Origin: Eledone cirrhosa
Taxonomy: Eukaryota
Length of the DNA stretch: 64,000 nucleotides
Direction of reading: 5' to 3'
Assembly (NCBI GenBank): GCA_964016885.1
Contig: OZ024751.1
Location: 5,518,001 to 5,582,000, forward strand
The notes beneath the pieces were generated by a model that saw only the letters and a list, made by a program, of their open reading frames with translations, did no database searches and was not told the DNA's origin. The position numbers and the translations under genes were made by a program. This document shows, piece after piece, positions 6,028-16,725 of the stretch. Positions within the stretch are counted from its first letter, which is position 1; the number at the start of each line of letters is the position of its first letter.

Positions 6028-6997
6028 TTACATAGATAAAGCCTCAACAAGTTCATCTTTTCTAACGCACAAAGAATCCGTAGAATTTTAGTTACATTTA
6101 AAAAAAACTGCATAGACATCAGAAGAGAACTTGCTTACCACATGCAGCATGACGTTAATTCACATTGGCACTCAAGCGAATGTCATGCATTAAAATGGTC
6201 GTGTAACCATAGGAAATGCCACTTTTTTAATCTAATAAATGCTTTATAAATGCCAACAAATATAAAGATGCACACACACATATATATATATATGTGTGTG
6301 CATACATAATCCACAAACGCAGCTTTGTTACAATTTTTTACAATTTGCAGAAGATACCGACCAAATATTGCTTATTCCGTCCATAATACATTAGGTTTAT
6401 GCACTAGATTAAATTATTTACGTTTGTCACTGCGGAACTGGTGAGACACAATTGCAGATATTATTAGATACTTCACCCAATTCATTCAATACTTCGTTAT
6501 TTCTGTCCTCTTTCCTAAGAGCTAATCATACTAATCATTGTTTTTTTGTTTCGAACCTTCCGGCGCCAACGAATTTAATACCAAGGATTTACTGAGAAGA
6601 ATTTAGTCGAAAATAAACAGTGTGGCTTGTCAAATAAAAGCTATAATTGAATTGGTCGGTATGATGTTTTTGGTGAAGAATATGACAAATTTAAACAAAT
6701 TACTATTCATTATGTTTAATAAGACATTCAATAAAACTATCATTCACGTCATTCAGTCATTAGTTGTGTTTTTTTAAAAAAGATTTAGATTTAACTCAAC
6801 GGTCGCCCGGAGTTGTCTATCAATCAGTAATCTAAGCTGGTCGCTAAACTGGTGAATGTGAATCGTAATAATTCGGTATAAATTACATTTTTGAATTATT
6901 ACACATAAACACAGACACATACACACATGCAGACACACACACAGCTATATATACTTATATATATATATATATATATATATATATATATATATATATT

Positions 6998-9470
6998 AAT
7001 GAAAAAGAACAAAGGAACTATTATGACATTATAACAAGTTTATTGCCGACAGCCATTTCGTCCGACCATATGTTGGGGCTTTTCAAGGCATATAACAGGT
7101 GATTGTAAGTTCATTATTTACATCAACGTTTCACTCAAGATTAGCAGTTTGAAATCGTGGTATACATCAACAGCTCCGCTTGTATATTTGGGGTCTATAT
7201 TCTAAGGGGCTCTTTTATATTAGTTGTAGGAGTTGTAAAAGGGATGGGTTATAGGGAGTTAAGAGAATTTGAAAAGGGCCTAAGAGTTAGGGATTGAAGG
7301 TTAAAAATGAAAGAATTTATAAGTTACGCATTAAAAGTAAAAGACTTGGGATCTCGTAAAAGCACCTTAAAAAATCCCTCAATAAGGGCATAAAGCTTAT
7401 AAGCCCCAATAAACCTAACAAACCAGAAGAGATTAAGAGAATAAAAAAATAAAAAAATAAAAATATAGTTTCCTAAAAAATTCCTTCAAAAGAAAAAAAA
7501 TTTTTTCTAAGAGATCTCGTTAAAAAATTTCAGAAGATTTACGAAGATTTGATAATCCCTACTAAAGTTCTAAACTCAGAAATTAAAAATTAAAAATTAA
7601 AAATTAGGGAAAAGAACTTTCAATAAGATTTAACAGGTTAATAAAGTTAATGATTTAGGGAGTCCATAATATAAATATTAAGATTTAAGTTAGGATTTGA
7701 ATTTTAAGAGTTCCAAACCCAGAAATTAAAAAAATTAGTGAATTTAAGATTAAGCAATCTTATATATCCAAGATTAAAAATTAATGATTAAGGGGTTGAA
7801 CATTAAATTTAATTTTAAAAATTAAGAAATAAATAGTTGAAAGAAATTAATCAATTAAAGGTTAATTCAAAAAGCCTTCAAAAGATCCCTCAGAAAAGGC
7901 CCCTTTAATATTTTTAATAAGAACCTCTTCCGAAAGACCCTTCAAAGAATTAAAATTTTAGAGAGCCTTTAAAGATATATATAAATGAATTGAGGAAAAT
8001 TACAAATTAAAAGTAAAAAATTACGGGATTTGGGAGATCCGAGGAATTTTCAAAGGGCTGCTTCAGCAGATACAACTTAGGTATAATAGATAAAGTAATT
8101 TAAGTAATTTAAGTAATCTAATTAAGGAATAATTCAAAGAGCTTATCAGGTTGGGCAAGATTAAAGAAAATGATAAGTAAGAAAATATATAAGCAAAAAG
8201 ACAATAATTATAAAATGTATTTTTAAGAAGGTATAAAGTAGCTTCAGTAATCTAATAATGTATTATCAAAAAATTATTAATATAGGATTAACAAAGACAT
8301 AATAATATATTCCTGCCTAATTAATAAACAATCAATAAACAATTAACAGTCAAGCAAAATTTACTCCGGGATATTCCACGCTCGGATACTTTACACACAT
8401 ACAGCAACACATAGGATTAACAAAGACATAATGGTATATTCCTGCCTAATTAACAAACAATCAATAAATAATTAACAGTCAAGTAAATTTACTCAGGGAT
8501 ATCCCACGCACGGATACTTTACACACACACAGCAAGATGAACAATACAGGTGACCTTGTGGGTGCGGTATCCATTGTGCGCATGCAGTAATCTGCATAGC
8601 TCCAGGCACAGTTGGTCTTGTTTAAAAGTTCCGAGTTCACGAATCAACTGGGATTCACTATCAGCTGTGTGAACTCCCTGGGAAATGTACCTGTGGATCA
8701 AATAGCTGGTGGTCGCAGGGTGTGGTCCGTTCGATCTTTTAGTTTCGGGGATTGCACGCGTTTGCGATAGATCAGCCTGCCGGTTCTAAACCCAAGGTCT
8801 TGCTGTATAGGATGTATTGGTGTACATGATATATTGGTAAAAAAGTCCAGTATGGACTTGACTGGGGTGGTATATTGCGTCTCTCGCTATTATCCCCTCC
8901 TCTCACCAATTCCAAGCTCACACGCGACTGGTCAAATGCTAAGGGCTGTCCCCTCTTTGTTTGTTGTAGGGGTCGGTTCTAGCTTAGATGGTGGTCGTGT
9001 TATCCATGTTGCTTCTATATCCCGTCAGTCATGCATATTCAAGACAGATCAGGGTATATATTTGCGGGTATGGTCCGGCGTCTACGCTATCCAAACGGTC
9101 TCTCTTGTGGTATTTTCAAATTCGCATGTCATCTCCCGGTTAAGTCTGCGCATGCTTCGGTGAATCTCGTGCATGGAATCTTGGGGTATCATATTACACG
9201 GGGTGACTAGCAGAAAATACATATTCCATGCTATCGCGCACGCGCTGGCCTGTGGCTACGACCATGTCCAGTCTCGGGGAGTAGCAGACAGCAGGTAGAC
9301 CAGCGAGACACACCCCTGTTCAAGGGGCACAACCCCTAACTTATCGAGTGGTCAGACATCAAGGGAGTCAACTCTCCAGGCCCATTATGTCAACCAAATA
9401 AATCCTTATTAATAAAGAACTAAGTCCTTATTAATAAAGAACTAATGTTGCTAAACAAATTCAGAAACGA
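6998..9470 (-). mobile_element. TA-flanked 2.5-kb ORF-less putative non-autonomous PLE
   Basis: (TA)n at both ends, HHR and AATAAA near the left end on the minus strand, and strong strand-skewed composition like other PLE 3' UTRs here. Internal tandem duplication 8282-8407 / 8411-8535. Confidence 0.6.
7043..7091 (-). ncRNA. Hammerhead ribozyme, U3-A8 core variant
   Basis: Minus strand TGCC-TTGAAAA-GCCCCAACATATGGTCGGAC-GAAA-TGGCT-GTC-GGCA, with stem I TGCC/GGCA. Confidence 0.7.
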
Positions 9471-9532
9471 TATATATATATATATATATATATATATATA
9501 TATATATATATATATATATATATATATATATA

Positions 9533-9712
9533 TCGTTTCTGAATTTGTTTAGCAAGATTCTTTATCTGAAAACGTGTGTTGAAACCGATATTGTTATACT
9601 TTGGGAACCAACCAACCAACGGGAAATTTATAAATTTAATTTATAATAAATTGAAGTGAAAGCAACTGCTGCGTGTGTTTCTTATTAGCAACATGACCCT
9701 CCCAAAGTATAA
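9533..9712. mobile_element. PLE-like terminal fragment with internal inversion (family of 54766-55300)
   Basis: 9533-9605 matches the reverse complement of 55228-55298. 9603-9712 matches 55110-55239 in direct orientation. TA-flanked. Confidence 0.75.
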
Positions 9713-9724
9713 CTATATATATAT

Positions 9725-14839: not shown

Positions 14840-16284
14840 TATATTTAGTTTGATTTATATTTATATGAGAACTAGCCGATAAATCTTTTGATTCCTAAAT
14901 CTTTGATTCCCTCTTTTTACTCTTTTTATTGTTTAATTTATTTAATTTATTTTTATTTTTATCTAAACATTCCTCATGAAAAATTAAGCTACCCTAAAAG
15001 CCGATGCTCCAAATTTTTTGAATTAACCTTACACTAGATAAACTTCTATATTAAATATAGGAACATATGTAGACATTATTGGACATCATAATCTTTTTTG
15101 CGATATTCTTTGCTAGATGTGATTTGATAGATAATTTTTGGCTTTGTCTTGTAATGAACTTGGCAATATATTGTCAATTAACTTTGAAGGGTTGTTCTTT
15201 GTGGTTTATTTTCATTTTTATTTTTATTTTTATCTTTATTCTTTTAGTATTGTAGTATTCTATAATATTTTTATTTTTATTTTAATTTTATTTTTAATAT
15301 TTTTATATGTAAATTTTTAATACGTAATATTTTTTAATACGTATTTTTAATATGCAATATTTTTATTATGTAATATTCTTTCGTAATATCTTTTTAGTTT
15401 TCTATTCTATATTTTTATATATTTTTACTTATTATTATTATTATTATTGTTATCTTTGTTTATAATATAATATATATTTTCGATTAGTATATTGAAATCT
15501 GCTCTCTATTTCTGCTTGATAGATAATCTTGTAGAGTAATCGCAAGAATAATAATATGCTCAAATTTTTATACCACATTGAGAATGTTTTCCGGTAACTT
15601 AGAATTTGCGGAGTGAATCAGTTGGATTCACATTGATGTTTGTAGCTGTCACATAAACATATGAATTTTTTAAAACTAAACATAAGATAATGAATTTTCA
15701 CACATTGTGAATACTTGTTTCATTCAGGAATACTGATATTTACAGTATAGTGTAAGTTTTATAAATACTAATACATTAAAACATAGGGTTTTCTACGCCT
15801 CGAATATGTCTGGCTATTTTTAAATTTTTTCTCTCTCTATATCTCTCTATATCACTCTATATTTCTCCCTTACATTAATACTTGAGCTAAATAAATAAAT
15901 AAATAAATAAATAAATAAATGTATCATTGATACACTTACTCAAAATGACCTCCCACTACCTAATTTTCTATATATATATATGTATCTATCTCTATTTCCT
16001 CTCTCTCTCTATATATATATCTCTTTCTGTCTCTTTACATGAAGCTCTTCGCTTTATCTATTTTTCCATCTCTCTATTTTGTTCCATGCATTTCTTCTTT
16101 TTCTTTTTTCTTCTTTTTCTTTTTCTTCCTTCTCTTCGTTCTGTCTGTCTTTCTTTCTTTTTTCCCTCTTTTCTTTCTCTCTTTCTTTCTCTCTGTATTT
16201 TCACTGCTAGCGTAAACCTCTCCAAATGAAGTTGATGTTTATTACGGTATGTCGAATATATTTATCTATAAAACTGTTTATATT

Positions 16285-16350
16285 GTATTTTGTCTGATGA
16301 AGGCATAGCATATTGTTAATATGATATCCCCGAAATATATATAATGAAAT
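16285..16350 (+). ncRNA. Hammerhead ribozyme in 3' pLTR
   Basis: CTGATGA 16294-16300, stem II, CGAAA 16331-16335, palindromic TATATA, then AATAAA. Confidence 0.75.
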
Positions 16351-16554
16351 AAATATGGTTTTATAAATATAGTTTTCCATTTATTTAATATTGTATATAT
16401 ATATATATATATATATATATATATATATATATATATATATATACATATATATATATATATATATATATATATATATATATATATATATTTATATATATAT
16501 ATATATATATATATAGCTGTGTGTGTGTCTGCATATATATATATATACATATAA

Positions 16555-16725
16555 AAGTATATATAGCTGTGTGTGTGTCTGAATGTGTGTATGTGTCTGT
16601 GTTTATGTGTAATAATTCAAAAATGTAATTTATACCGAATTATTACGATTCACATTCACCAGTTTAGCGACCAGCTTAGATTACTGATTGATAGACAACT
16701 CCGGGCGACCGTTGAGTTAAATCTA
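16555..16725 (-). repeat. Inverted copy of 6783-6957
   Basis: Near-perfect reverse complement (GATAGACAACTCCGGGCGACCGTTGAGTTAAATCTA vs TAGATTTAACTCAACGGTCGCCCGGAGTTGTCTATC). Confidence 0.92.

Follow-up and report, generated by a model that had tools for sequence, protein, structure and literature searches.

How does a piece of flanking DNA come to be repeated, mostly in inverted orientation, along a cluster of transposable elements whose far edge lies 10 kb away? The question is raised by a 64,000-nucleotide stretch of the Eledone cirrhosa genome (assembly GCA_964016885.1, contig OZ024751.1, positions 5,518,001 to 5,582,000 of the forward strand), hereafter the window, which holds a cluster of Penelope-like elements (PLEs) set between (TA)n tracts. 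The segment adjoining the first tract, here called X, was examined by self-comparison of the window, pairwise alignments, and nhmmer; coordinates are positions in the window, and sequence comparisons are confined to it unless another set is named. Our answer, which we regard as reasonably probable, is that the copies of X are local templated insertions made by TA-primed copying at break ends, and that PLEs inserting one after another into the TA spacers moved them apart at a later time.

A long inverted copy of X at the far edge of the cluster matches it at 162 of 164 positions with two mismatches and no gaps (6781–6944 against 16730–16567), and the match continues to the TA-adjoining end (6957/16555). 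A preliminary description of this DNA had reported the pair as 6783–6957 and 16555–16725; the match runs about 5 nt further, to 16730. The partial direct and inverted copies that it placed inside the cluster were recovered as well, five of them aligning at 28/30 to 27/27, so that six copies are known in total, one long and inverted and five shorter ones lying between it and X (Table 1). All six share the TA-adjoining end of X, stopping within its last 4–12 nt, and the far end varies. The description had set every copy beside a TA tract and a PLE end, which holds for the common TA end but not for the distal end of the 13031 copy, which joins the 13127 copy with no TA between.

The copies are confined to the cluster as far as the window reaches. 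The longest exact match of the core 6783–6905 is 120 nt within the cluster and 12 nt in the remaining window, and 30 shuffled cores gave matches of at most 15 nt (mean, 12.1). X runs on from 5772–6780, a stretch with no other match, and nhmmer with 5772–6930 returned only itself, 16583–16732, and 13046–13126. The way in which the short copies end is equally regular. Moving into X from its TA end, one first meets an AT dinucleotide at 6927–6928, and all four short copies (27–30 nt) leave X at that AT (6927) and continue as TA. A further detail concerns the same site: position 6928 differs in the 96-nt copy and 6929 in the 175-nt copy, adjacent positions exactly at the short-copy stop, which look like a synthesis pause or re-alignment but may be chance.

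The right flank has also been copied, a feature missed by the preliminary description. Immediately beyond the long copy, 14 nt (16730–16743) are an exact inverted match to 17214–17227 in the right flank, segment Z, and this 14-mer is present at just these two places. The last unit of the cluster therefore reads TA, X inverted, a 1-nt overlap, Z inverted, TA, and both of its halves are host flank. Since inverted X stands head-to-head with right-flank sequence that is likewise inverted, and the Z 14-mer is unique to the two sites, it seems that a break in the TA tract had each of its ends extended on the flank to which that end belonged before the two were joined. Removing unit C, the PLE unit at 13290–16393, brings five of the six X copies into one block of ~620 bp, TA included, and the 10-kb spacing is most simply explained by later PLE insertion into TA spacers.

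Such a history might begin with a double-strand cut in (TA)n, made by the GIY-YIG nuclease of a PLE or by cruciform cleavage, which has been described as a source of breaks in TA repeats (PMC12972899). On the left, the 3′ TA end would snap back and copy ~175 nt of X; on the right, the 3′ end would snap back across ~450 nt and copy 14 nt of Z, and the two extensions would be end-joined with 1 nt of overlap. The geometry of both steps can be read from the sequence. Abortive rounds would yield products of 27–30 or 96 nt, the short ones exiting at the first AT and resuming on TA. Inverted copies would be primed in cis, and direct ones either in trans or off the other arm. The resulting palindrome of X, (TA)n, and inverted X, together with every regenerated TA tract, would remain a target, and for that reason PLE complementary DNA (cDNA) units would pile up. 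The preliminary description had proposed fold-back priming from (TA)n ends. Locus-confined copies, the common TA end, the AT exit, and recurrence of the layout in a second genome (see below) speak for that core, but fold-back of the left end is insufficient by itself; direct copies need trans priming or the other arm, because left-end fold-back gives inverted copies only. As for the polymerase, the balance tilts slightly toward host Pol theta over the PLE reverse transcriptase (RT). End-joining activity has reportedly been found, in a preprint, for group II intron-like RTs. Hairpin and tandem inserts at two junctions inside the cluster, that of element C and that between segments A and W, fit repeated snap-back, loop-out, and trans rounds of SD-MMEJ, a synthesis-dependent form of microhomology-mediated end joining (PMC5728401).

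Several points weigh against this account. The uniqueness of X covers only the 64 kb of the window. Divergence leaves the order of events open, with 10 of 377 positions differing between X and its copies and 1 of 204 in the inverted twin of element C (Fisher p = 0.11); the long copy is closer to X (1/160) than the 96-nt copy is (4/96; p = 0.07), so that an outer-copy-first order is not favoured. The direction of synthesis is not readable from the sequence, and 175 nt far exceeds the structures within 30 nt of a break described for SD-MMEJ (PMC5728401). Because the four short copies may derive from one another, their AT exits are perhaps not four independent events. A candidate local copy elsewhere in the window, 58048–58161, was rejected on finding that it shares as many sites with its neighbour as with a distant copy (4 versus 4), and therefore not every such pair is local. 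Finally, the layout is clear in only 1 of 18 related loci.

These loci (L001–L018) came from scanning genome contigs with an alignment of PLE homologues and belong to other genomes. Judged by their PLE content, they look like animal DNA inside bacterial assemblies; several of these assemblies contain animal-like repeats alongside Hydra-type PLEs, most likely from host contamination. Most of the contigs are short; a TA tract of at least 10 nt occurs in 8 of the 18 loci, and TA lies at the inner ends of 2 of the 42 inverted pairs listed. The masked window had no DNA match to any of the 18 at E 1e-5. In L015, flank 7256–7486 precedes a (TA)n tract and a twin unit of Hydra type; a second (TA)n tract, a hairpin unit, and a TA-rich run come next, and then the inverted flank (11620–11815), which stands head-to-head with a repeat also found in L011 before a closing (TA)n. 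The inverted flank matches the flank at 174 of 176 positions, with one tandem-repeat indel. Part of this flank is matched in L014 at 75%, far under the identity of the local pair. L015 is a clear and independent second case of the layout. Its positions 11325–11610 hold a small hammerhead-bearing element, a near-perfect fold-back palindrome with a short loop and a 67-nt tail on one arm. L001 11644–13363 was considered as a replicate and not counted; its TA runs are just (TA)3 in size, and it is perhaps an element with long terminal inverted repeats.

The whole cluster could instead have been built in one concerted event, with a TA-primed PLE RT jumping between several PLE RNAs and either single-stranded flank DNA or a local read-through transcript with X-(UA)n, to make 10 kb at once. 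X copies and PLE halves do have the same polarity to TA tracts and stand in the same head-to-head units, the ages of the X copies and unit C do not differ significantly at the p value given above, and self-priming and template jumps have been proposed for Penelope (PMC3846280). This history would nevertheless require about six families together, including element B, which has lost a cysteine, and segment A, which has no intact open reading frame (ORF). Twin halves elsewhere in the window differ at between 0/159 and 22/168 positions, and such clusters therefore build up over time; a single event is accordingly rather unlikely. That X is simply the 3′ end of another TA-targeting retroposon, its copies being ordinary 5′-truncated insertions, we consider improbable. 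Copies that agree at a 3′ end on TA and vary at the 5′ end are typical of retroposition, PLE-family tail fragments of 20–35 nt do occur in the window, and X folds somewhat better than its shuffles (z −1.7 to −2.7). Families Y, W, and U and the SINE-like (short interspersed nuclear element-like) repeat recur window-wide, whereas X has no copy outside the cluster; finding all six copies within 10 of 64 kb has p ~1e-5 if they were dispersed, or 0.02 when the two long copies alone are considered. X also lacks a junction at its left edge, and the hammerhead core CTGANGA..GAAA was not found in it.

An inversion of the 10-kb interior would yield the order of left flank, X, interior, inverted X, right flank directly, if a staggered break at the left breakpoint duplicated X and the interior copies are older scars from when X adjoined. 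Inverted duplications accompany 17 of 29 Drosophila inversions (PMC1885836), and the interior copies are somewhat more diverged (8/213) than the long copy (2/164). That difference is small, TA-primed copying would still be required for the five short copies and Z, and the interior holds no recognisable host sequence, although segment A, 12139–12386, and 12519–12899 have no family match in the window. We therefore see little prospect for an inversion. An artefact of assembly or amplification around long TA tracts and hairpins is very unlikely. Palindromic TA tracts abound in the region (23 of 188 pure tracts in the window), and tandem and inverted PLE insertions trouble assemblers (PMC8557442), but private substitutions differ from copy to copy, the junctions show specific microhomologies and templated inserts, and L015 has the same layout in an unrelated assembly. 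The preliminary description had offered as its alternative that X and inverted X are the terminal inverted repeats (TIRs) of a composite transposon. A near-perfect 175-bp inverted pair flanking a 10-kb segment does invite this idea, which we find scarcely credible: no target-site duplication (TSD) lies outside the pair (the best common word is 5 nt, away from the ends), none of the 19 ORFs scanned of the 36 listed in the window has a transposase Pfam match (low-complexity ORFs being mostly omitted), it is at the inner end that the copies are conserved, and X continues into the left flank. Its main proposal, that the copies are inverted target duplications, also needs rewording; they are better described as templated insertions. 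A TSD of target-primed reverse transcription would not resemble them, as they are multiple, mostly inverted, and up to 175 nt long, and a true TSD would hide in the TA tract.

Local templated insertion also has recognisable relatives. SD-MMEJ or Pol theta-type insertions (PMC5728401) proceed by snap-back, loop-out, and trans priming in repeated rounds, with short microhomologies and both direct and inverted copies. As in those systems, the inserted DNA comes from beside the break, X and Z copies matching only the flanks within the window, and primer repeats and microhomology are evident in the TA primer, the AT exits of the four short copies, the single nucleotide at the X|Z joint, and the 16-bp hairpin and tandem inserts. 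A template within ~30 nt fits four of the six X copies, and the 96-nt copy, the 175-nt copy, and the Z loop exceed it. Whereas SD-MMEJ structures lie within ~30 nt of the break, copies here reach 96 and 175 nt with a loop of ~450 nt, and priming is by a microsatellite that is self-complementary. X copying thus behaves like SD-MMEJ without being a plain member of that class. LINE-1 (L1) insertions, too, can produce inverted flank duplications, primed by TA/AT microhomology in one case, and in the L1 model of reciprocal-end inverted duplication a self-annealed 3′ flap primes copying of the flank (bioRxiv 10.1101/2024.12.14.628481). The L1 cases are single events beside the insert in human cells and cancers; here the site is a PLE target in (TA)n, the six copies run in either orientation, the left and right flanks have both been copied, and the arms lie 10 kb apart.

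From the side of the elements, Hydra-clade PLEs and their inverted pseudo-long terminal repeats (pseudo-LTRs) share with this cluster head-to-head, 5′-truncated 3′ ends, an optional tail on one end, junction palindromes, a (TA)n target, and, tentatively, a hammerhead motif (PMC8557442, PMC3846280, PMC11167929). Those structures, as described, are inverted copies of the element, whereas here host flank is copied also, and the Y tail is ~90 nt as against the 30–40 bp described for PLEs. Inversions by staggered breaks (PMC1885836) likewise leave inverted duplicates of non-repetitive DNA at the two ends of a segment, but that model has neither nested short copies nor TA priming, and the present locus gives no evidence of an inverted host interior. 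We found no report of inverted host-flank copies at PLE sites in the literature searched, much of it available in part and including few subscription journals, and the parts of PMC9977147 and PMC13282606 examined contain nothing on them; with such partial coverage, this is weak evidence of absence. We conclude that the feature is real and the process of a known type, that its setting is new, and that its extent is unusual.

More tentatively, and as a possibility we rate well below an even chance, twin priming in Hydra-clade PLE integration may itself turn to the flank for an alternative template, TA ends being extended by the telomerase-like RT on either element RNA or neighbouring single-stranded DNA. 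Flank-templated halves would then form long, (TA)n-centred palindromes that re-break and recruit PLEs; on this reading, PLE clusters across aquatic animals would be hotspots that feed themselves and bear inverted flank copies as their mark. The completion of PLE insertions, and the reason for their tandem and inverted structures in microsatellites, is named as an open question (PMC8557442). Scars like these would record intermediates, in which both cut ends are extended, TA serves as a primer, and flank DNA is usable as a template. Inverted flank copies can be counted as a genomic signature, and purified PLE protein makes testing in vitro possible. Pairs of the X type are also open to mis-annotation as TIRs or TSDs, and they can blur PLE boundaries in repeat libraries.

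Table 1. Features of the cluster and its flanks, in positional order
Feature	Position	Strand	Basis or remark
X, left flank adjoining first (TA)n tract	6781–6957	+	putative template for all copies
(TA)n tract, left cluster edge	6958–6996	.	sequence
Segment A, probable PLE-like 3′ region	6997–9447	−	tail at TA tract; identity presumptive
22-bp tandem duplication, A|W head-to-head junction	9399–9445	+	templated-insert signature
22-nt copy of W tail	9448–9469	+	palindrome with 9534–9555 across TA 9470–9533
W-family head-to-head unit	9534–9713	.	inverted long tail 9534–9606, sense short end 9604–9713; matches 54770–55298
Element B, 5′-truncated Hydra-type PLE with 3′ untranslated region (UTR)	9718–11480	+	linker CxCx5C, GIY-YIG; ORF 9697–10488
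Short W-like 3′ end between TA tracts	11631–11678	+	sequence match
Y-family PLE 3′ end, hammerhead motif, inverted	11752–11922	−	~12 nt of the Y long tail attached
X copy, 30 nt, direct	11935–11964	+	28/30 match
U-family PLE-like 3′ end, hammerhead motif, inverted	11972–12138	−	93% to 36098–36264
Repeat piece	12519–12950	+	final 51 nt match 35982–36032; PLE identity doubtful
X copy, 96 nt, inverted	13031–13126	−	92/96 match
X copy, 30 nt, inverted	13127–13156	−	30/30; abuts 96-nt copy directly
X copy, 30 nt, direct	13175–13205	+	28/30; palindrome with 13127–13156 across TA run
Element C 3′ end in inverted orientation, with ~90 nt of additional tail (inverted pseudo-LTR)	13290–13585	−	203/204 to 16190–16393
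Head-to-head junction of C	13574–13636	.	15-bp tandem (2.4 copies); perfect 16-bp hairpin 13599–13614/13621–13636, 6-nt loop
Element C, 5′-truncated Hydra-type PLE	13615–16393	+	RT from motif B/C, linker CxCx5C, GIY-YIG; 1.55-kb UTR; hammerhead motif 16294–16335
X copy, 27 nt, inverted	16508–16534	−	27/27 match
X copy, ~175 nt, inverted	16555–16730	−	pairwise alignment
Z inverted, 14-nt inverted copy of right-flank 17214–17227	16730–16745	−	head-to-head with inverted X, 1-nt overlap, then TA 16746–16775
Dispersed SINE-like repeat in right flank	16777–16968	+	several further copies in window
Z, right-flank source of 14-nt insert	17214–17227	+	adjoins TA run; sequence match

The interior of the cluster is a chain of (TA)n-bounded pieces, comprising two Hydra-clade PLE ORF fragments and several head-to-head 3′-end units. 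The preliminary description had called all of it a PLE cluster, which stands for elements B and C and is doubtful for 6997–9447 and 12519–12950. Segment A has, by eye, a decayed hammerhead-like core and AATAAA, and its sense strand is T-rich like the UTRs of B and C; it gave no protein match, and an atlas search of one of its ORFs returned no usable match. No recognisable protein emerged when A, the left flank, U, and 12519–12950 were read in all six frames. In the copy of the W tail at 9448–9469, the single diagnostic base agrees with the adjacent copy and not with 55273–55298. A TAT microhomology shared with a short TA run marks the start of element B. The repeat just beyond the right edge is a putative SINE.

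By motifs and by-eye comparison with a published Hydra alignment, B and C are PLEs with a C-terminal endonuclease and Hydra-clade marks. The ORF of element C, 13514–14839 (open to 14839), contains YRDD followed by VY..YVG, that is, RT and C-terminal GIY-YIG motifs in one ORF. Among 3,521 candidates, 63 homologues of element C were found at E ≤0.001, the best near 40% identity. The CxCx5C linker occurs in B and C, in a third element, D (43957–45009, minus strand), and in 36 of the 63 homologues, none of which has CX2-5CxxC. In the by-eye alignment, B, C, and D lack CCHH and carry CxxC/CxH-type motifs around conserved E and N, the second cysteine of CxxC being lost in B. The window copies are 5′-truncated; among 17 homologues longer than 600 aa, the N-terminal motifs RWK, DKT, and DKG occur in 10, 11, and 2, respectively. 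The ends of B, C, and D adjoin TA tracts, and Hydra families nearly always insert into (TA)n (PMC8557442, whose supplement includes a Hydra family from Octopus bimaculoides).

A hammerhead core motif was seen at 16294–16335 and in other Y and U ends, and its flanking stems form, though at z = 0.13; the core of element B is degenerate. An Rfam scan gave no hammerhead among the 150 of 191 matches listed, which were all below the gathering score and mostly microsatellite-like miRNA matches. A Pfam scan of the PLE ORFs gave no direct match, and one of 19 local ORFs gave none that was informative. Atlas clusters at 0.94–0.96 have PF01541 in 21–27% of members and PF00078 in 13%. A predicted fold (mean predicted local distance difference test score, 64.6) had weak fold-search matches to RTs and T4 EndoII (E 0.1–0.7), and a PDB sequence search with the homologue alignment returned one chance match (E 0.75). 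Further Hydra-type endonuclease fragments lie at 53793–54255, 48681–48952, and 50140–50643.

Across the window, PLE pieces follow a common layout of (TA)n, an inverted 3′ end, a junction, a 5′-truncated sense copy, and (TA)n. All four complete Y-family units (13290–16393, 24930–25398, 52754–53216, and 55389–56528) have ~90 nt of extra tail on one end alone, as two RT start sites, each used once per cut end, would give. In vitro, a PLE protein cleaves and extends both strands and initiates at two internal sites (PMC11167929), and inverted pseudo-LTRs with palindromic junctions are known in PLEs (PMC3846280). The halves of unit C are best read as two cDNAs, one per cut end, because each holds sequence absent from the other. 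Beyond the end of element D, two inverted copies of 17–20 nt lie at 45381 and 45507, inside the following 550-bp TA tract (region 45060–45530); they leave at an AT found in the adjacent copy and absent from the twin at 42942. Compared with its homologues, element D carries an internal deletion.

Of the 25 inverted pairs listed in the window, six have TA at their inner ends: two belong to X, one is the 9448 copy, and the other three were left out of the count, their repeated piece being PLE-like. One pair flagged in this way, 54769–55240, is really a PLE-like twin unit. The inverted pair 51891–52714 and 56594–57397, also with TA at the inner ends and four twin units between, was not accepted as a replicate, its repeated piece being itself a PLE-like end with a hammerhead-like motif. 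This 826-bp pair (763/802) belongs to a second PLE cluster, 51891–58161, and the four twin units that it encloses are of differing divergence. Within that cluster, 53254–54735 is a twin unit that is almost entirely palindromic. An inverted pair of hammerhead motifs at 1967–2008 and ~2320–2360 is probably a further PLE twin unit.

Other repeats were noted in the window. Two inverted pairs, 87–243/950–1108 and 663–766/1133–1237, are interleaved, not nested, around a SINE-like repeat. A decayed long interspersed nuclear element in several frames occupies 18706–22662, with matches to endonuclease PF03372 (E 7e-4) and RT PF00078 (E 4e-14). At 39707–40112 there is a 20-bp minisatellite of ~20 copies, 60317–61617 has arrays of the trinucleotides CCA and TCA, and 62118–63111 a tandem region of longer period.

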